Origin: a virus
Virus record (IMG/VR): IMGVR_UViG_3300024268_000164
Span: 1-40,832 of that record
Length of the DNA: 40,832 bases
Strand: one strand, 5' to 3'
Positions 12,296 to 40,351 of this stretch are shown here, piece after piece. Under the pieces are notes generated by a model that was not told the origin of the DNA, made no database searches, and worked only from the letters and a program-made list of their open reading frames with translations. Numbering within the stretch: the first letter of the stretch is position 1; every line of letters starts with the position of its first letter. Made by a program: the position numbers and the translations under genes.

Positions 12296-12853
12296 CTATC
12301 CAATCATTTTGGCAAGAAGCTGTTCATATAAATCTTTGTAAATTCCGGCTTCTGTTTTTGCCTTTGCCAACATTTCCGCTGTTTTAAGATGGGTTTCAGC
12401 AGGATATTGTGCAGGTACTTCCACAATCTTTTCAACAGGCACTTCCACTGTTTTCTGTTCAATGCCCAGGCACTTGGCAATGCCTTCATCAATCTGCTTC
12501 ATTTCCGCATCTGTTGCGGTTCTGATATAGTTGCCAAGCTGATGTTTTCTGCCGAATGACACCATTGCACAATCTGCATACATCATTCCACTGCACACAA
12601 TGGGAACTGTGTATGCATCCCTTTTTTCTTCATCTGTCAGGACAATGATATTCAAATATCCATATCCATTGCGGAAGTTTGCAGATACAATCAGGGCTTT
12701 CTTGATGCCCATGCCATTATTCATTTCATATTCATAAATTTCTCCACGGTTATATTCCATCTTTTCAACCTCTTTCTGATAACTTGTAATTGCCTTATAT
12801 GCTGTTACATCCACATATCCTGAACCATTGCGGATGATTTCAAAGTCTGCCAT
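12296..12853 (-). CDS. Protein with a PemK/MazF-like fold core plus N- and C-terminal extensions (tentative)
   Basis: RGEIYEYEMNNG..KKALIVSAN......LNIIVLTDE...PIV....MYADCAMVSFGRKHQLGNYIRTATDAEMKQIDEGIAKCLGI follows the MazF/PemK sequence logic. Confidence 0.45.
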   Translation of the reverse strand: MADFEIIRNGSGYVDVTAYKAITSYQKEVEKMEYNRGEIYEYEMNNGMGIKKALIVSANFRNGYGYLNIIVLTDEEKRDAYTVPIVCSGMMYADCAMVSFGRKHQLGNYIRTATDAEMKQIDEGIAKCLGIEQKTVEVPVEKIVEVPAQYPAETHLKTAEMLAKAKTEAGIYKDLYEQLLAKMIG

Positions 12854-12865
12854 TATATGTCCCCC

Positions 12866-13276
12866 CTACTTGAACGGAAGTTCTTCCTGGGATGCATCCA
12901 TGAAATCTTCTTCAGATGCAAGTGCAGGTGCTTCATTGGCATGTGTTTCATTGTTTGCTTTGCTTTCACAGAATTCCTGTTCTTCCACAATCACATCTGT
13001 GGTGTATACTTTCTGATTATCATTGTTGGTGTAGCTGCCGGTCTGAATCCTTCCCACAACACCAATCTTCATGCCCTTCTTGAAATACTTTTCTGCAAAT
13101 TCAGCAGGTTTTCCGAATACAACACAGGGAATGAAATCTGCACCCTGCTCACCTTCTCTTTTGAATCTTCTGTCTACTGCCAATCTGTATCTTGCAATTG
13201 CAATAGGTTCTGTTCCCTGGGAATATCTCACTTCCGGATCAGCCACCAATCTTCCTGTTAAAATTACTTTGTTCAT
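12866..13276 (-). CDS. ssb: Single-stranded DNA-binding protein
   Basis: MNKVILTGRLVADPEVRY...OB-fold pattern and acidic tail ending EELPFK. Confidence 0.9.
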   Translation of the reverse strand: MNKVILTGRLVADPEVRYSQGTEPIAIARYRLAVDRRFKREGEQGADFIPCVVFGKPAEFAEKYFKKGMKIGVVGRIQTGSYTNNDNQKVYTTDVIVEEQEFCESKANNETHANEAPALASEEDFMDASQEELPFK

Positions 13277-16543: not shown

Positions 16544-17056
16544 TCATTCACCCCTTTCTTTCATAAATACTTCTGCATACTGCACACCGAATTTCACCGC
16601 TTCCTGATGATTTTCAAAGTAGACATCAATTCTGTTTTCCTTAATGGCACCGCCACAATCGTGTGCTATGTATTCCTTGCCATTTATCACCACTGTGCTT
16701 CCATAAGGAATGACTTCCTTATCAACCGCAATGCTGACACCTGCAATCAGCCTTTCACCGCTTGCACCAATCACAATCTGATTTCCTGCTTCATCAACAG
16801 GCCTATTCAATGCCCATTTCCCACAGCACCGCTGACAGCTACAAAATGCTGTCAGCCGGAATTCTCCAAGTGATATGGTTTCAGGTTCTTCAGGTTCCGG
16901 TTCCGGTAATTCAACCACCACGGCTTTTTCAATCACTGCCGGTGTTTCTGTCTGTGCTTTCACTGTGGTTTCCTGGGTATTGGCTGCAAGCAACACAAAG
17001 GATGTAGCAATCAAGGCACCAATTCCAATGCCAATCAAGTCACTGTGTTTCTTCAT
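16544..17056 (-). CDS. Secreted or membrane-anchored 3D-domain (RlpA-like double-psi beta-barrel) cell-wall-active protein
   Basis: N-terminal hydrophobic segment LIGIGIGALIATSFVLLAA, a PEPEPEEPE linker, then FRLTAFCSCQRCCGKW...IAVDKEVIPYGSTVVING..YIAHDCGGAIKENRIDVYF, the 3D-domain signature. Confidence 0.75.
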   Translation of the reverse strand: MKKHSDLIGIGIGALIATSFVLLAANTQETTVKAQTETPAVIEKAVVVELPEPEPEEPETISLGEFRLTAFCSCQRCCGKWALNRPVDEAGNQIVIGASGERLIAGVSIAVDKEVIPYGSTVVINGKEYIAHDCGGAIKENRIDVYFENHQEAVKFGVQYAEVFMKERGE

Positions 17057-17283
17057 TCGGTTTCTTCACTCCCTTCTGTAATTGGCTGCACATTGAATGG
17101 ATCACTCAAATCACAGCCTTCATACTTTGCAAGGAATTCCTTCAAGGTTGACATTCTGCATTTCAGCCTTCCAATCTTCAGGAACCTAAGAAGCCCTGAC
17201 TTCTGAAGCTTGTATACATAGTCAACATTGGTTTTCAAAACTTTTGCCACTTCCGGCACCGTCAAAAGTAAATCTTCATTCAT
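17053..17283 (-). CDS. Excisionase-type (MerR-like HTH_17) DNA-binding protein
   Basis: LLTVPEVAKVLKTNVDYVYKLQKSGLLRFLKIGRLKCRMSTLKEFL. Second gene of the lytic operon. Confidence 0.55.
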   Translation of the reverse strand: MNEDLLLTVPEVAKVLKTNVDYVYKLQKSGLLRFLKIGRLKCRMSTLKEFLAKYEGCDLSDPFNVQPITEGSEETE

Positions 17284-17330: not shown

Positions 17331-17343
17331 TGATTTTAAATCA
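17331..17343. promoter_or_regulatory. Operator O2: perfect 13-bp palindrome TGATTT-T-AAATCA at the 3' end of the cro-like gene
   Basis: The same extended motif TTGTTGATTTnAAATCAC occurs at 17576-17593. Confidence 0.6.
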
Positions 17344-17554
17344 CTTCCTTAGCAAAAAAAATACGCTCTTTATCAGTCAACTTTGTGATGTTTAATATCT
17401 CGCAAAGTCCACTGATTTGTTTTGATGTGAAAGGTGTCTTGTTTTCACATTTGTTCTTAAATCCTTGTCTTGAAAGGCCTATTGTTTTTGCAATATAGCT
17501 TTTTTTCAAACCGGATTCAGCAATAATTTTTTCAAGTTCAGCCGTGTTGGTCAT
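17336..17554 (-). CDS. Cro-like HTH regulator (first gene of the lytic operon)
   Basis: 72 aa with HTH KKSYIAKTIGLSRQGFKNK. Divergent from the XRE repressor. Confidence 0.7.
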   Translation of the reverse strand: MTNTAELEKIIAESGLKKSYIAKTIGLSRQGFKNKCENKTPFTSKQISGLCEILNITKLTDKERIFFAKEVI

Positions 17555-17579
17555 CCGTTTGCCCCCCTTTCTTATTTGT

Positions 17580-17592
17580 TGATTTCAAATCA
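17580..17592. promoter_or_regulatory. Operator O1: perfect 13-bp palindrome TGATTT-C-AAATCA just downstream of the lytic promoter -10
   Basis: Read directly from the sequence. Positioned to block the leftward promoter. Confidence 0.65.
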
Positions 17593-17599
17593 CGATTTC

Positions 17600-17628
17600 A
17601 ATATAATACTTGTGTGATTATTTGTCAA
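17600..17628 (-). promoter_or_regulatory. Candidate lytic (cro) promoter TTGACA-17-TATATT
   Basis: The -35 is at 17623-17628 and the -10 at 17600-17605 on the minus strand. Confidence 0.55.
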
Positions 17629-17646
17629 CAGGTTTTTGCAAAATTG

Positions 17647-17675
17647 TTGATTTAAAATGCAAATAGTGGTATTAT
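17647..17675 (+). promoter_or_regulatory. Candidate repressor promoter TTGATT-17-(TGg)TATTAT overlapped by the degenerate operator O3 (TGATTTAAAATGC, 17648-17660)
   Basis: Extended -10 TGGTATTAT at 17667-17675. The -35 overlaps the O3 half-site. Confidence 0.5.
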
Positions 17676-17700
17676 CTATTCACGGAAGGTGGTGAAACTT

Positions 17701-18051
17701 ATGTCAAACATTGGTAAGAATATAAAAGAACGCAGGGAATCACTTGGAATGTCGCAAGATGAACTTGCCGAAAAAATGGGATATAAAAGCAGGTCTACAA
17801 TTGCCAAAATTGAAAAAGGTGTAAATGACATTACACAAACTAATATTGTTAGATTTGCAGAAATTCTTAGAACAACCCCTGCTGTACTTATGGGTTGGGA
17901 AAAGGTGCAAGAAAAAAACAATGCCATTGTGGGCATTGTTGGAAGGTTAAGAACTGATGATGAATTTCTCTCTTTGGTAGAAACACTGAACAACCTTGAC
18001 AAAGAAAAAATTGCAGGTGTTCAGCAAATGATTTCAGCTTTCCTGAAGTAA
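17701..18051 (+). CDS. XRE-family HTH repressor (probable maintenance repressor, CI-like role)
   Basis: IGKNIKERRESLGMSQDELAEKMGYKSRSTIAKIEKG is the HTH_3 pattern. ATG at 17701 follows SD GGAAGGTGGTG. Upstream of int and divergent from cro. Confidence 0.8.
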   Translation: MSNIGKNIKERRESLGMSQDELAEKMGYKSRSTIAKIEKGVNDITQTNIVRFAEILRTTPAVLMGWEKVQEKNNAIVGIVGRLRTDDEFLSLVETLNNLDKEKIAGVQQMISAFLK

Positions 18052-18132
18052 TTTCAGAATAAGGTCAAGCAAAGATATGTCATTACATTTTTCTAATAAC
18101 TCGGTGATTTTATTTATGTATTCTTCTCTCAT
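18034..18132 (-). CDS. Micro-ORF A (32 aa): MREEYINKITELLEKCNDISLLDLILKLLQES, paralog of micro-ORF B
   Basis: Hand-called. SD AAAGGAG sits 6 nt upstream. 17/32 residues are identical to the ORF at 21805..21906, with many synonymous differences. The 3' end overlaps the repressor 3' end in antisense. Confidence 0.6.
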   Translation of the reverse strand: MREEYINKITELLEKCNDISLLDLILKLLQES

Positions 18133-18152
18133 GGCATACTCCTTTCACCGGG

Positions 18153-18200
18153 GAACGAATGTTCTGAATTTATTTTAAAACAAGAATTGAAACAAAACAA
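18153..18200 (-). promoter_or_regulatory. Candidate promoter for micro-ORF A (TTGTTT-17-TAAAAT) followed by the palindrome GAACGAATGTTC
   Basis: The -35 is at 18195-18200, the -10 at 18172-18177 and the palindrome at 18153-18164. Confidence 0.4.
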
Positions 18201-18298
18201 TGGTAAATGTTAGCACTTGGAATATCATGAATTTTTTACTAAAAAACATATTTTTTTCATAAAAAATAATTTTTCGTGCAAAGAAAGGGGATGGGATA

Positions 18299-20053
18299 AT
18301 GGCAAAAGTTATCATCACGAACAGGGGAGATAAAAAGAAACCTTCTTGGCAATACCGTTTTGAATTGGCAAAGGTGGATGGCAAAAGAAGATATGCAACC
18401 AAGGCAGGATTCAAAACTAAGGAAGAAGCAGAAAAGGCAGGCAACCTTGCCCTTGCTGAATATCTCCGGGCAGGCAAGCACTTTGAACCTTCTGAAATGT
18501 CTGTGGCAGATTATCTTGATTATTGGGTAAACAATTATGCCGTTGTGAATCTTGCGGATAATACAGTCAGTGCATACACCAATATCATAAAAAATCATAT
18601 CAAGCCCCGGATTGGCCACTTTATGCTGAAATCCATTGATGTAATGACATTACAGGACATGATCAATGACATATACCTTCAAAAAGGATTCACCAAGAAG
18701 TTCCTGGGGAACATCCTGAAGGTGTGCAAGGGTGCATTCGGATATGCTGCATATACTGCAAAGCTGATTCCATACAACATTGCTGAACCTGTCAAATTGC
18801 CCAAATTCGAGCCAAAAGAAGGAACAATGAAGATTCTATCCAAGGAACAAATGGAAGCCGTTCTTGACCGTTTCTGCAACTCTCCATATCAATATTATGC
18901 AATGCTTATAGGTTACTACACAGGAATGCGAATTGGTGAAGTATATGGATTGACATGGGATGATGTGGATTTGAGAAATGGCATCATTCATGTCAGACAG
19001 CAATGCAAAGTAAAAGACAAGGATGCCATGGCAGGACGGAAGCCACAAAAAGGCAAGGCATTGAACAGATGGTACCTTGGTGCCTTGAAAAACAATTCTT
19101 CATACAGAACCATCAAAATTGGTGATGAATTGCTGAATGCACTTACTGCATATAAGGAAATGCAAGAAAAGGCTGAAGAAGAATATGGTGAATTTTATGT
19201 GAAGCACTACCTGAAGGAAGAAAAGCTTGCCAATAGTAGAATAGAACACCGGATCATATCACAAACGGATGAAGCAGGCCTGTGTCCATATCCCAGGGTG
19301 AAGCTTGTGTGCGTGAAGGAAAATGGTGAATTCCGGGGAACTGTACCAATGAAATATGTTGCAAAGGTTGTCAAAACAGAAATGGGCTTTGAAGATTTCC
19401 ATTTCCACATGTTGCGACACACTCATGCCACTGTGCTTGTGTCAAATACAGAAGAATTGCAAATCAAAGATGTTTCAGAAAGGCTTGGTCATGCATCAAT
19501 TAAAACCACAATGGACACCTATGTTTCAAACACAGATGAAATGCGTGTGAAATCTATGGAAATATTTGAAAAAGTGGGCAAATTGAATGTGAAACATAGA
19601 AATGAAAGACTTTATGAGATTTGGAAAAGCACAAAGAACAGATGCAACAGCACTTCATTTTATAAAAGCCGGGGAATCAAATTTCATGATGCATGGCTTG
19701 ATTATGAAGTATTCGAGCAGTGGGCAATGGAAAACGGATATGAAGATGATTTGTCACTGATAAGAAAAGATAAAACACTTGATTTTTGCCCTGATAACTG
19801 TATATGGTCATCTGAAAACAAAAATGTGCGTGGAAAGCATGTGTGGACAGATGGACACAACATCAGATCATATTCTGTCAGAAATATTGGTTCATCATAT
19901 CAATACAGTATTACTGAATATGACCAAAAAGGCAAAAGAAAAAATATTCAAAAGGCAGGTTTTAAGTCCGAACAGGAAGCAAAAGAAGCAGCGGAAGCTG
20001 TCATTGAAGCCATGTATGAAAATGCGACAGCATTGCTCAAAAGAATAAAGTAA
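18299..20053 (+). CDS. int: Tyrosine integrase with an N-terminal Arm-binding domain and an unusual ~165-aa C-terminal extension
   Basis: Catalytic motifs YTGMRIGE, HMLRHTHAT and LGHASIKTTMDTY (Tyr codon at 19520-19522). The N-terminus SWQYRFE..GKRRYATKAGFKTKEEAEKA is Arm-domain-like. Confidence 0.9.
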   Translation: MAKVIITNRGDKKKPSWQYRFELAKVDGKRRYATKAGFKTKEEAEKAGNLALAEYLRAGKHFEPSEMSVADYLDYWVNNYAVVNLADNTVSAYTNIIKNHIKPRIGHFMLKSIDVMTLQDMINDIYLQKGFTKKFLGNILKVCKGAFGYAAYTAKLIPYNIAEPVKLPKFEPKEGTMKILSKEQMEAVLDRFCNSPYQYYAMLIGYYTGMRIGEVYGLTWDDVDLRNGIIHVRQQCKVKDKDAMAGRKPQKGKALNRWYLGALKNNSSYRTIKIGDELLNALTAYKEMQEKAEEEYGEFYVKHYLKEEKLANSRIEHRIISQTDEAGLCPYPRVKLVCVKENGEFRGTVPMKYVAKVVKTEMGFEDFHFHMLRHTHATVLVSNTEELQIKDVSERLGHASIKTTMDTYVSNTDEMRVKSMEIFEKVGKLNVKHRNERLYEIWKSTKNRCNSTSFYKSRGIKFHDAWLDYEVFEQWAMENGYEDDLSLIRKDKTLDFCPDNCIWSSENKNVRGKHVWTDGHNIRSYSVRNIGSSYQYSITEYDQKGKRKNIQKAGFKSEQEAKEAAEAVIEAMYENATALLKRIK

Positions 20054-20056
20054 TCC

Positions 20057-20397
20057 TGTACGCAAAATGCGTACACCGGAACCAATGCGTACAGAATGCG
20101 TACAAAATGCGTACAGGACCAAAAAAACACATATTTTAAATTATGAAGCAATCGCTAGAAACCGCATAAAATCAGGGTTTTTTCAGTTTCGTCCACAACA
20201 CTTCTTATACTTCTTACCACTTCCGCATGAAGTTTTTTGGGATATATTTATCGTAATTTATTATCACTTTGTATCACCTTGAAACACCGATAAATACAGT
20301 GGTATCAAGGAAAAACAATACTTTTCATCACTTTTTATCATTTCTTATTATTATGTGCAATTCTGCTAGTGCGTACAAAATGCGTACACAGTACGCA
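20057..20397. other. attP-like region: arm-type sites TGCGTACA (5 left, 3 right) flanking a ~250-bp AT-rich core
   Basis: Sites are at 20057 (inverted), 20068, 20086, 20097 and 20108 (the last three phased at 11 bp), and at 20370, 20381 and 20391 (inverted, partial). Lies immediately after int. Confidence 0.7.
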
Positions 20398-20959: not shown

Positions 20960-21658
20960 TTATGTTCTTATTACACCGCAACATGTGCCAATGTATTGCA
21001 CTTCATCCATCCGCTTCAGAACAATGTCTGAATCCTGATTATGTAGGCACTGCAACCGGTAATGTCCATCTTCTTCAATGAATTTCCTGATATATACCCT
21101 ATCACCACGCAAGAAGGCAGCACATTCTTCATTGCCTGGGAAACGATTTTCAAAAAGAATAACATCCCCTTTGCAGAATTTTGGTGCCAAGTCATTGCTT
21201 GTCATTTTAATTGCAATATAAGCTTCTTGTGTGCCTGTTTCAATTTCAATGGTTTCACATGTATCATATATGATTCCCTTGTGTATTTCCCCATGTGGAA
21301 GAAGGCAGGGAATCTTGTGTTTCATGAAGGCTTCCCTTTCACTTTTTACCGAACCTGCTTCATACTTGGCAATCAATTCAATGATGCTTTTTCCATGCGG
21401 ACCGCATGACCGGTAATTCCGCAATATAGCCTTTTCCTGTGGTGTATGCGGACATTTTCCCATAAGGCAATTCATACTGTGACCGGTTGCTTCTGATATA
21501 GCCATGACGGTTGAAACCTTTGGATCAGGTGTTTTTCCATAATATATATTTCTGATTGTGTCTAATGGCAGTCCGCTTTCGTCTGCCAATTTCTCTTTGG
21601 TCCACCCCAATTCGGCAAGGATTTCTTGTAACCTTTTGCTTAAAATTTTACCCGGCAT
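20960..21658 (-). CDS. LexA/CI-like regulator: N-terminal XRE HTH plus C-terminal S24 peptidase-like domain
   Basis: N-terminus LSKRLQEILAELGWTKEKLADESGLPLDTIRNIYYG. C-terminus KGDVILFEN....ECAAFLRGDRVYIRKF......YRLQCLHN....IVL.....QYIGTCCGVIR parallels LexA DGDLLAV...VVVARIDDEVTVKRL...VELLPEN...IEGLAVGVIR. Ala-Gly at residues 101-102. Confidence 0.75.
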   Translation of the reverse strand: MPGKILSKRLQEILAELGWTKEKLADESGLPLDTIRNIYYGKTPDPKVSTVMAISEATGHSMNCLMGKCPHTPQEKAILRNYRSCGPHGKSIIELIAKYEAGSVKSEREAFMKHKIPCLLPHGEIHKGIIYDTCETIEIETGTQEAYIAIKMTSNDLAPKFCKGDVILFENRFPGNEECAAFLRGDRVYIRKFIEEDGHYRLQCLHNQDSDIVLKRMDEVQYIGTCCGVIRT

Positions 21659-21690: not shown

Positions 21691-21713
21691 ACTAACATTT
21701 TTCGACAAAAATA

Positions 21714-21742
21714 ATGTTAAACTTGATATTTCTTTTTGTCAA
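21714..21742 (-). promoter_or_regulatory. Candidate promoter of the LexA-like gene (TTGACA-17-TAACAT)
   Basis: The -35 is at 21737-21742 and the -10 at 21714-21719. The operator lies downstream of the -10. Confidence 0.4.
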
Positions 21743-21804: not shown

Positions 21805-21906
21805 ATGGGTGAGGAATATGTTGAAAAAATTATACTAAAGGTAAGGGAATGCAAAGATATAGCATTGTTGGATATGATACTGAAGATATTGGTTGCATCA
21901 AAATAA
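21805..21906 (+). CDS. Micro-ORF B (33 aa): MGEEYVEKIILKVRECKDIALLDMILKILVASK, paralog of micro-ORF A
   Basis: Hand-called. SD GAGGT upstream. Divergent from the LexA-like gene. Its stop is immediately followed by a perfect bidirectional terminator. Confidence 0.6.
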   Translation: MGEEYVEKIILKVRECKDIALLDMILKILVASK

Positions 21907-21936
21907 AAAGGGCAGGGATTCATTTCCCTGCCCTTT
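21907..21936. terminator. Bidirectional rho-independent terminator
   Basis: AAAGGGCAGGGA-TTCATT-TCCCTGCCCTTT, a 12-bp perfect stem with T-runs on both strands. Ends the late operon (minus strand) and micro-ORF B (plus strand). Confidence 0.85.
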
Positions 21937-21940
21937 CTTT

Positions 21941-22219
21941 TTACTGATGCTCTAATTTTACAATCTTTTCATTGATTGCCTTGATCTGTTCTTCCACCAC
22001 AGGCATCCGGTGTGCAAAGTTATTGTGTTCCCTGACTTCCCTGGTCAATTCATCCAATTTGTATTCAATCAGGGCAACTGTTTGCTGTTGCTTTGCTTCC
22101 GTTTCCATTGCGTGGGCCTTATGTTCTGCCAATGTCTTTTTGTGTGTGAAGTGATTGTTTATCAAACACACAGTAAGTGTCACTGCACCCCCAATTCCTG
22201 CTGCAATAATTGTTTCCAT
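21941..22219 (-). CDS. Small N-terminally membrane-anchored coiled-coil protein (BhlA/UviB-like topology; holin or lysis-accessory candidate)
   Basis: TM segment IIAAGIGGAVTLTVCLI followed by a long helix. Last gene of the late operon, where lysis genes normally sit. Confidence 0.5.
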   Translation of the reverse strand: METIIAAGIGGAVTLTVCLINNHFTHKKTLAEHKAHAMETEAKQQQTVALIEYKLDELTREVREHNNFAHRMPVVEEQIKAINEKIVKLEHQ

Positions 22220-39442: not shown

Positions 39443-40351
39443 TTATTTGATTCTGATTTTCTGCCCAACATAGATTCTATTGGGATTTTTAATGCCATTG
39501 ATTTTGGCAAGTTCCTGATATGTGGTGCCGTACTGCTCGGCAATCTCTGCAAGGGTATCATCCTGCTTTACCGTGTAATACTTCACCTTTTCATCATCTT
39601 CCAACATTGCATTGACAATGGCCTGAACTGCTTCATAGTCATATCCGGCAGTGGTCAGGTTGTTTTCCCTTTCAATGCCTACACCCCACAGGCCAAGAAT
39701 GACTTCTTCAGCAAGTTCTTCATTGCTCTTTGCCGGTGCTTCTGTCTTTGTTACATTTCCGCTGATTTCACCGGGAAAATCTCTGTAACAGATATTCACA
39801 TCCACATTTCCATTGATTCCGGGAATGGAACCCTTGGAAGTGTACTGCCACATGTCATAGGTGCCACTGATGCCTGTGGGCTTGTTCTTGCTGTACTTTG
39901 CAACCCACTTGGTGTACCGGTCAAGGCCATTCTTCAGATAGACACCCCACCAATTCTGATTTGCATATATACCGCACCAATACCCTTCTTCTTCAATCAT
40001 GGTGCAAAATACATGTGCCCTTTCAACAGCACCATTCTGTGTGCCCTGTTCTTCCAGGTCATAATATACTGGGAAGGAAAGCTTGCCCTTGTAAGGTTCC
40101 AACAGTCTAAGAACATGCAGTGCTTCACTCTTTGCCCCTGCCATTGTCTTTGCGTATGAATACAGATAAACACCAAAAGGAATGCCATGCTTGATGCAGG
40201 CTTCCACATTCTCTTTGAATCTCGGATCATCCTGACTTCTGATGTCTGAACCAAAACCACACCGGATGATTGCACCATCAATGTGGTCCTTTACCTTTGC
40301 CCAATTGATTGTGCCCTGATGCTTTGACACATCAATCACTTTCATTTCCAC
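39443..40351 (-). CDS. Endolysin: GH25 muramidase + CW_7-like repeat + LysM
   Basis: [26 protein letters not shown] matches GH25. [33 protein letters not shown] matches CW_7. [30 protein letters not shown] matches LysM. Confidence 0.9.

Follow-up and report, generated by a model that had tools for sequence, protein, structure and literature searches.

A 32-residue micro-protein encoded convergently with the XRE repressor gene of a temperate phage is a putative SOS-controlled antirepressor

The IMG/VR record IMGVR_UViG_3300024268_000164 (40,832 nucleotides, analysed over its full length and referred to as the window) contains two very small open reading frames (ORFs), micro-ORF A and micro-ORF B, which are real genes, paralogous to each other and tied to lysogeny regulators. 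Micro-ORF A (18034..18132, minus strand) encodes 32 amino acids (MREEYINKITELLEKCNDISLLDLILKLLQES) and is convergent with the gene of a short XRE-family repressor. It probably encodes a DNA-damage-induced antirepressor of this adjacent protein of 116 amino acids, a reading suggested by analogy with a described Bacillus phage system. The two genes represent a large, unnamed family of micro-ORFs that is widespread in temperate phages of gut Clostridia. The evidence read directly from the window and its relatives comprises the gene with its conservation and selection pattern, a LexA-type box, a terminator, the architecture of the repressor and the co-occurrence of the micro-ORF with one particular repressor C-terminal domain. 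The box, the terminator embedded in the repressor gene and the link to that domain go beyond the preliminary description of this DNA, a reading of the letters and ORFs that had proposed a paralogous pair of micro-ORFs around the lysogeny genes and a mimic of the repressor.

Both genes stand at the positions first assigned to them. Micro-ORF A is preceded by the Shine-Dalgarno sequence AAAGGAG (18139..18145, minus strand), 6 nt ahead of its ATG, and micro-ORF B (21805..21906, plus strand; 33 amino acids, MGEEYVEKIILKVRECKDIALLDMILKILVASK) by GAGGT, 8 nt ahead of its ATG. Their peptides align without gaps with 17 identities in 32 positions (pairwise BLASTP, E = 1e-10). Different codons are used at 11 of these 17 identical residues, and the list of codon pairs equals the one given before; the nucleotide identity of the two ORFs is only 54% and the synonymous divergence (dS) is saturated. 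The neighbours are also as described: micro-ORF A shares 18 nt with the 3′ end of the XRE gene and is divergent from the integrase gene (int), while micro-ORF B is divergent from a gene for a helix-turn-helix (HTH) protein with a Peptidase_S24 domain. The claim that the two copies bracket the lysogeny cassette holds for the segment made up of int, attP, a 185-amino-acid ORF and the LexA-like gene, but the XRE repressor gene itself lies outside it.

The peptides are not recognised by the family databases. At E ≤ 1, Pfam gives no match for either peptide, SinI (PF08671) included, and scans of six family peptides against Pfam, PHROGs and NCBIfam returned nothing meaningful. A blastn search with the 5.3-kb region found only one match of 98 nt. 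The preliminary description had called for tblastn searches in related phages and for a test of the ratio of nonsynonymous to synonymous divergence (dN/dS). With tblastn, micro-ORF A is without a match among 50,697 GenBank phages. When the joined A and B sequences were used as a query, seven metagenomic homologues were obtained, from which a family profile was built. Among 1.84 billion representatives, 610 clusters (50% identity) match this profile at E ≤ 1e-3; at E ≤ 1e-10 the number is 27. The members are mostly 32–40 amino acids long and share the consensus M-K-E-E-Y-I-x-K-I-x-E-L-L-x-x-C-N-D-I-S-L-L-D-L-I-x-x-L-L-x-K-S. Conservation spans the whole length of the peptide, not one short mature stretch; the Cys at position 16 is mostly conserved, though several members have S, T or I in its place. 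The dN/dS ratio has a median of 0.19 over the 105 family pairs with unsaturated dS and is below 1 in all of them, which bears out the selection on the peptide that had been read from the synonymous codons. Related loci keep both the ATG and, at the same place, a GGAG-type ribosome-binding site. The AlphaFold2 model of the micro-ORF A peptide (pLDDT 82) is a two-helix hairpin, i.e., a predicted helix-turn-helix hairpin with helices at residues 2–15 and 19–31. Foldseek finds no matches with this 32-residue model, and comparison of the peptide profile with PDB sequences yields chance matches only. According to the genome records, the hosts are represented by metagenome-assembled genomes of Oscillospiraceae, Acutalibacteraceae and other Clostridia/Eubacteriales. 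The exact micro-ORF A sequence is absent from a collection of 15 billion predicted proteins, probably because it overlaps the repressor gene; the exact micro-ORF B sequence is already found among the called genes of 25 public contigs, without a name.

For comparison, related viral loci were retrieved, which carry labels such as L008 or L021. A locus is designated type A if its micro-ORF runs convergently to a repressor gene, and 26 distinct loci of this type were compared. On the strand of micro-ORF A, the elements follow each other in the order TAAAAT, seven bases, the palindrome GAACATTCGTTC, Shine-Dalgarno sequence and ATG. The hexamer TAAAAT (18172..18177, minus strand), which was read by eye and not picked up by the consensus scan, is the putative −10 box of a micro-ORF A promoter; most related loci have TATAAT at the −10-like position. 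The palindrome (18153..18164), 32 nt before the ATG, has the form GAAC-N4-GTTC and corresponds to the Firmicutes/clostridial LexA operator consensus, as established for B. subtilis and clostridia (PMC4234289). Only two exact copies of this box occur in the window, the other one (12872-12883) being located within a coding region, where it is probably due to chance. An exact box is present in 21 of the 26 type-A loci (19 at −27 to −48, immediately behind a TATAAT-like hexamer, and two at −86/−95); another three have a box with one mismatch in the same place and two have none. The background frequency is 0.021 per kb in 68 control phage loci. The sequence around the box is otherwise unconserved between type-A loci, and the box is kept beside the micro-ORF even where the recombinase gene is not adjacent (L011). 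Based on consensus and conservation, we infer that host LexA binds at 18153-18164.

At the other end of the gene, a terminator scan detects an intrinsic-terminator hairpin with a T-run (17907..17940, minus strand), 93 nt after the stop codon of micro-ORF A. Read on the other strand, the hairpin falls within the codons for KNNAIVGIV in the repressor gene, at the conserved K-K-N-D-x-x-x-D-I-I segment of the repressor family. The scan places a hairpin 75–93 nt downstream of the micro-ORF in 17 out of 19 type-A loci; an 18th one (L017), with a larger loop, was recognised by eye. RNAalifold folds the 18 hairpin copies into a consensus helix of 8 bp with compensatory changes in four pairs. The hairpin cells are paired in 94.4%, compared to 84.2% in shuffled alignments (0/500 reach the observed value) and 25–69% with slid partner columns. 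With a promoter, a LexA-type operator, a ribosome-binding site, an ORF and a terminator, micro-ORF A thus appears to be a self-contained unit of about 250 nt. The conserved terminator makes read-through from the micro-ORF A promoter into the cro operon unlikely, so that this possibility is rejected, and it confines the antisense overlap between the micro-ORF A RNA and the repressor mRNA to about 130 nt.

The convergent partner (17701..18051, plus strand) is a CI-like repressor in which Pfam recognises HTH_3 only (residues 8–62) and no Peptidase_S24. Lacking the latter domain, it is not expected to be cleavable under RecA control and would need an outside inducer. We found 356 homologues of this protein. 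Its AlphaFold2 model (pLDDT 90.8) consists of a five-helix HTH followed by helices at residues 66–85, 87–97 and 101–115; these last three predicted helices make up the C-terminal domain (residues 66–116; 17896..18048, plus strand), the proposed target of the micro-protein. The top Foldseek match in the PDB is SinR in the SinR/SinI complex (1b0n_A; E = 7.6e-4, 112 columns, TM 0.49–0.54), at an rmsd of 14.6 Å that is so large that only the architecture of the two proteins is comparable.

In all type-A loci, the partner of the micro-ORF is a short XRE repressor (116–169 amino acids), and the last ~50 residues of these repressors share the pattern KKND...DII.RLRTD.DFLSLVETL..LD.EK..GVKQMLSAFLK. 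The overlap between both genes amounts to 18 nt in the window and 18–41 nt in related loci. The cassette of C-terminal domain and micro-ORF is joined to at least three unrelated HTH types (repressors of L001–L047), and the recombinase on the far side of the micro-ORF can be either a serine or a tyrosine enzyme. This suggests that DNA-binding specificity is exchanged as a module around a constant induction module. One repressor of 169 amino acids (L009, 2427-2936) carries two tandem copies of the C-terminal domain. In a reciprocal test, a micro-ORF was sought within 3 kb in 80 viral loci whose repressors have an HTH like that of the window. A convergent micro-ORF is found in 12/12 loci with the C-terminal domain (11 overlapping, one 86 nt away), while there is none within 3 kb in the 68/68 loci with other C-termini.

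The following course of events would account for these observations. In the lysogen, host LexA would sit on the GAAC-N4-GTTC box at the transcript start of micro-ORF A and keep the gene off, while the XRE repressor, with its HTH, its three-helix C-terminal domain and no means of self-cleavage, would shut down the cro-like early operon. Upon DNA damage, RecA-stimulated cleavage of LexA would free the micro-ORF A promoter, and a short monocistronic RNA would be produced, terminating at the hairpin antisense within the repressor gene. The peptide would then bind the repressor at its C-terminal domain and block the oligomerisation needed for operator binding, so that the phage is induced; the antisense overlap with the repressor mRNA could possibly have a minor added effect. 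The binding of peptide to repressor and its effect on induction are derived from the anatomy of the locus and from the analogy with AimX, the micro-protein of the Bacillus system compared below. Micro-ORF B would supply a second, differently controlled dose of a like protein, from its own promoter and terminator and beside the HTH-S24 regulator. A SinI/SinR-style antagonist had been proposed from the outset; of all readings, that of a small protein antagonising the XRE repressor has the best support, but the evidence for mimicry in sequence fails. Residues 3–12 of the peptide had been thought to resemble the stretch DEFLSLVETL of the repressor C-terminus, yet a profile-profile comparison (hhalign) of the peptide family with the C-terminal-domain family detects no similarity (probability 0.55%, E = 0.1) and aligns different segments. 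The peptide as a sequence mimic of the repressor C-terminus is rejected on this result.

The lack of such similarity also weighs against the proposed mechanism, as do four further observations. First, the LexA-box consensus derives from Bacillus and Clostridium, not from Oscillospiraceae. Second, the divergence of the peptide and that of the domain are uncorrelated (mirror-tree analysis; Mantel r = 0.11, p = 0.24). Third, at least five loci (L008, L028, L029, L034 and L032) encode a close homologue of the peptide and have no such domain in the 6–10 kb retrieved. Fourth, in L008, L028, L029 and L034 an HTH gene, the micro-ORF and a tyrosine integrase gene follow each other on one strand, an arrangement that is odd for an antirepressor. 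These four loci have no LexA box, and no terminator occurs within 220 nt of the micro-ORF. The HTH genes beside it encode 174–233 amino acids with no recognisable C-terminal domain; by eye, the HTH proteins of L029 and L034 end in a faintly similar TDxxFF...L motif.

These four loci, in which the homologue lies between another HTH gene and an integrase gene, at the same time favour the strongest of the alternatives, which we regard as unlikely: the peptide may modulate another target, such as LexA or RecA of the host, the HTH-S24 protein of the phage, another HTH regulator or the machinery of integration and excision, its linkage to the C-terminal domain being merely physical. The peptide is conserved (60–80% identity) far above its neighbours and in a manner uncorrelated with the domain, as would fit a conserved, possibly host, target, and copies of the micro-ORF B type adjoin attP, recombinase genes or the HTH-S24 gene. 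GIL01 gp7, described in the cited source as a small LexA-binding phage protein (PMC4551915), provides a precedent. The strict association with the C-terminal domain (12/12 versus 0/68) speaks for the repressor instead, as does the published AimX precedent with its shared layout. Also against this alternative, the peptide occurs alongside both serine and tyrosine recombinases, and a Xis-like HTH_17 gene is already present at 17053-17283.

Less likely still is that the RNA is the functional product and the peptide secondary. The preliminary description had pointed out that transcription of micro-ORF A yields antisense RNA against the repressor mRNA, and SOS-induced convergent transcription could silence the repressor by antisense pairing or polymerase collision. 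The convergent ORF overlap of 18–41 nt is indeed conserved, and the position of the terminator lets the transcript cover about 130 nt of the repressor 3′ end in nearly all type-A loci. The same terminator, however, caps the overlap and stops transcription short of the HTH part and the promoter of the repressor gene. Moreover, the peptide is under strong purifying selection with saturated synonymous sites, the ATG and the Shine-Dalgarno sequence are conserved, and micro-ORF B, L008 and other homologues have no antisense partner. For AimX, recoded and stop-codon alleles reveal little effect of the antisense RNA, which is dispensable. An antisense contribution is thus possible but probably secondary. 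Finally, two further readings are highly improbable: a TisB-like type I toxin induced by SOS, and a secreted pro-peptide of the arbitrium, SHP or AgrD-like kind. In their favour, the small size together with LexA control and a convergent arrangement with 3′ overlap recalls type I toxin-antitoxin loci, and a Cys is mostly conserved at position 16. Composition and context led us to reject both. Of the 32–33 residues, 11–12 are charged, and Kyte-Doolittle means over 19 residues reach no more than 0.83 (A) and 1.17 (B), too low for a membrane helix; there is no N-terminal hydrophobic signal (as was noted earlier against an AimP-type peptide), the neighbours are int and XRE with no TPR receptor, AimR or AgrB nearby, and conservation extends over the full length with a replaceable Cys.

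Micro-ORF B probably provides a second input to the switch that micro-ORF A is proposed to act on. No LexA box is found upstream of micro-ORF B. Directly after its stop codon, the terminator scan places a strong bidirectional hairpin (21907..21938), and a homologous hairpin also follows the B-type copies in L015 and L021. An inverted repeat, TAACATT-N13-AATGTTA (21693..21719), lies between the LexA-like gene and micro-ORF B as a candidate operator and is partly conserved upstream of the B-type copies in L015 and L039. Two copies per phage are found in L015, L016, L021–23, L039/40, L119, IMGVR_3300031555_001308 and JAZNZV010000165, and L007 and L031 also have a second match. The relative position of paired copies varies between contigs. 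B-type copies are located near attP, recombinase genes or an HTH-S24 gene (window, L021, L119, L016, L007); an HTH-S24 gene is the neighbour in the window as well as in L021 and L119, and is lacking in L118. The B-type sequences are diverse, which points to old paralogues rather than recent duplicates. The regulator beside micro-ORF B in the window (20960..21658, minus strand; 232 amino acids, HTH_3 and Peptidase_S24 by Pfam, LexA/CI-like) was compared with the PDB for its catalytic residues and gave no informative alignment.

A near-palindrome, AACAAT-N4-A(A/T)TGTT, is present about 75 nt upstream of the micro-ORF A ATG (18196-18211). It recurs as AACAATTACCATTGTT upstream of type-A micro-ORFs in L021, L024, L047 and L119, with any type of recombinase, and its half-site TAACATT also builds the inverted repeat between the HTH-S24 gene and micro-ORF B. 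As judged from these repeats, both sites may be operators for the phage HTH-S24 protein and in this way link the promoters of both micro-ORFs.

A bolder extension, which we consider speculative and rather improbable, is that of a master key: in gut Clostridia, one SOS-induced peptide would disable the repressors of several prophages residing together, the paralogue would turn the switch into a two-input OR gate and the antisense terminator would hold the cassette together as a mobile unit. A cross-reactive peptide is conceivable because conservation is high in the peptide as well as in the C-terminal domain, in contrast to the differing DNA-binding domains. The paralogue would then be controlled by the phage HTH-S24 sensor or by the state of integration at attP, and the terminator within the repressor codons would impose a dual-coding constraint by which domain and micro-ORF are kept together as a mobile regulatory unit.

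The window as a whole is the complete genome (~40.8 kb) of a temperate, siphovirus-type phage, with portal, terminase, scaffold, capsid, tail, lysin and replisome-organiser genes. Nearly all genes are carried on the minus strand. Divergent from the repressor gene, a cro-like small HTH gene (17336..17554, minus strand; 72 amino acids, with weak HTH_26, DUF739 and CII matches) heads the early operon. In the region between both genes (17555-17700), the motif TTGTTGATTT(C/A)AAAT is repeated in direct and inverted orientation; a palindrome TGATTTCAAATCA is also present, and so are strong promoter-like sites in divergent orientation. These elements are likely the operators of the XRE repressor. On the other side of micro-ORF A, the tyrosine integrase gene (18299..20053, plus strand) encodes 584 amino acids with Phage_integrase, SAM_3 and Arm-DNA-bind_4 domains. 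Its Arm-DNA-bind_4 matches are found both at the N-terminus and, unusually, in a C-terminal extension (residues 534–572). It is followed by an attP-like region (20063..20389), in which a repeat search finds six arm-type repeats AATGCGTACA grouped in two clusters (20063-20116 and 20368-20389). The lysis genes appear split, as a GH25-CW_7-LysM lysin gene (39443-40351) between the portal and scaffold genes is far apart from a holin-like gene of 92 amino acids (21941-22219) that comes after the tail-fibre gene. Another ORF of 185 amino acids (12296-12853) has a weak PemK/MazF-like match under the Pfam cut-off (E = 5e-4), which is of note since the AimX of phi3T works via MazF.

Stress sensing by the prophages of gut Clostridia (Oscillospiraceae and relatives) is poorly understood, and their repressors include many short XRE proteins incapable of self-cleavage. 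The locus offers a candidate route from DNA damage to induction, leading from a LexA box via a 32-residue protein to the repressor C-terminal domain, with a family of hundreds of clusters behind it. If this route is correct, the AimX-type principle of a tiny antirepressor would reach beyond arbitrium and beyond Bacillus. Gene callers overlook such genes, which leaves a gap in annotation, and the terminator, which sits antisense within the coding region of the repressor, is a clear case of dual coding that can be used as a search signature.

The closest known counterpart is the AimX-AimC-AimL module of the extended arbitrium systems in Bacillus phages (preprint of November 2025, bioRxiv 10.1101/2025.11.23.689978). 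There, a LexA site is followed by the 29-amino-acid AimX ORF, which is convergent with aimC and overlaps it by 30 bp. AimC, an HTH repressor of 80–140 amino acids, lacks a cleavage domain and carries a helical domain for oligomerisation at its C-terminus; the cro-like aimL is divergent from aimC. AimX binds the C-terminal domain of AimC, forms a heterodimer with it and abolishes oligomerisation and operator binding; the authors themselves draw the comparison with SinI/SinR. The module occurs in phi106, phiW23, Wbeta, BMBtp14 and Waukesha92, with AimX ORFs of 29–80 amino acids, and a structure of AimC is available (PDB 9iaq) (bioRxiv 10.1101/2025.11.23.689978). The window shares with the phi106-type layout a small ORF convergent with a short, non-cleavable HTH repressor, the overlap with its 3′ end and an upstream LexA-type box, as well as a cro-like gene divergent from the repressor, a helical repressor C-terminus and a small protein predicted to be helical. 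Unlike in the arbitrium phages, no aimR/aimP is located upstream of micro-ORF A, where a divergent tyrosine integrase gene is found instead; related loci have recombinase or HTH genes in this place, and no AimR-like protein was seen among the large ORFs scanned in the window. Without aimR and aimP, the locus is not a member of the arbitrium module. Foldseek aligns 9iaq with the repressor over the HTH only (62 columns), and phmmer against the PDB does not list it. No homology to AimX was detected: the peptide profile has no PDB match, and AimX was compared by its description only. Other differences are the hosts (Bacillus there; gut Oscillospiraceae, Acutalibacteraceae and other Clostridia here), the high divergence described for AimX as opposed to the highly conserved peptide family here, the second paralogue that is common per phage and the conserved terminator within the repressor coding sequence, which is not described for AimX.

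SinI/SinR (PDB 1b0n) resembles the proposed pair in its XRE-type repressor of ~110 amino acids with a helical C-terminal multimerisation region and a small helical antagonist encoded alongside. SinI shares sequence with the SinR C-terminus, whereas the micro-protein has no detectable similarity to its presumed target. In addition, sinI is upstream, co-directional and Spo0A-controlled, while micro-ORF A is convergent and behind a LexA box, and SinI/SinR is a chromosomal biofilm switch and not a phage switch. In phages of Gram-negative bacteria, a small protein whose gene is repressed by host LexA inactivates a non-cleavable repressor in the case of Gifsy GfoA/GfhA (PMC3121763), 186 Tum and N15 AntC, as is proposed here. 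Those antirepressor genes have a LexA operator at the promoter; here, the consensus box lies between the −10-like box and the Shine-Dalgarno sequence. Their products are unrelated and larger, the LexA box is of the Gram-negative type, and the genes map to other genomic sites, where they do not overlap the repressor gene convergently. The conservation of peptide and domain suggests that action in trans between prophages, as in Gifsy, is possible. Micro-ORF B with its divergent HTH-S24 gene resembles the pairs of transcription factor (TF) and small protein in the TF-smORF induction modules described for Vibrio and other linear plasmid-like phages (Silpe et al. 2023, PMC10432266); those modules are SOS-independent with an activator as the factor, whereas the factor here has an S24 domain, and there is no sequence relationship. 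Set against these systems, the most likely mode of action of micro-ORF A is an AimX/AimC-type, SinI/SinR-like antirepression that is gated by LexA.

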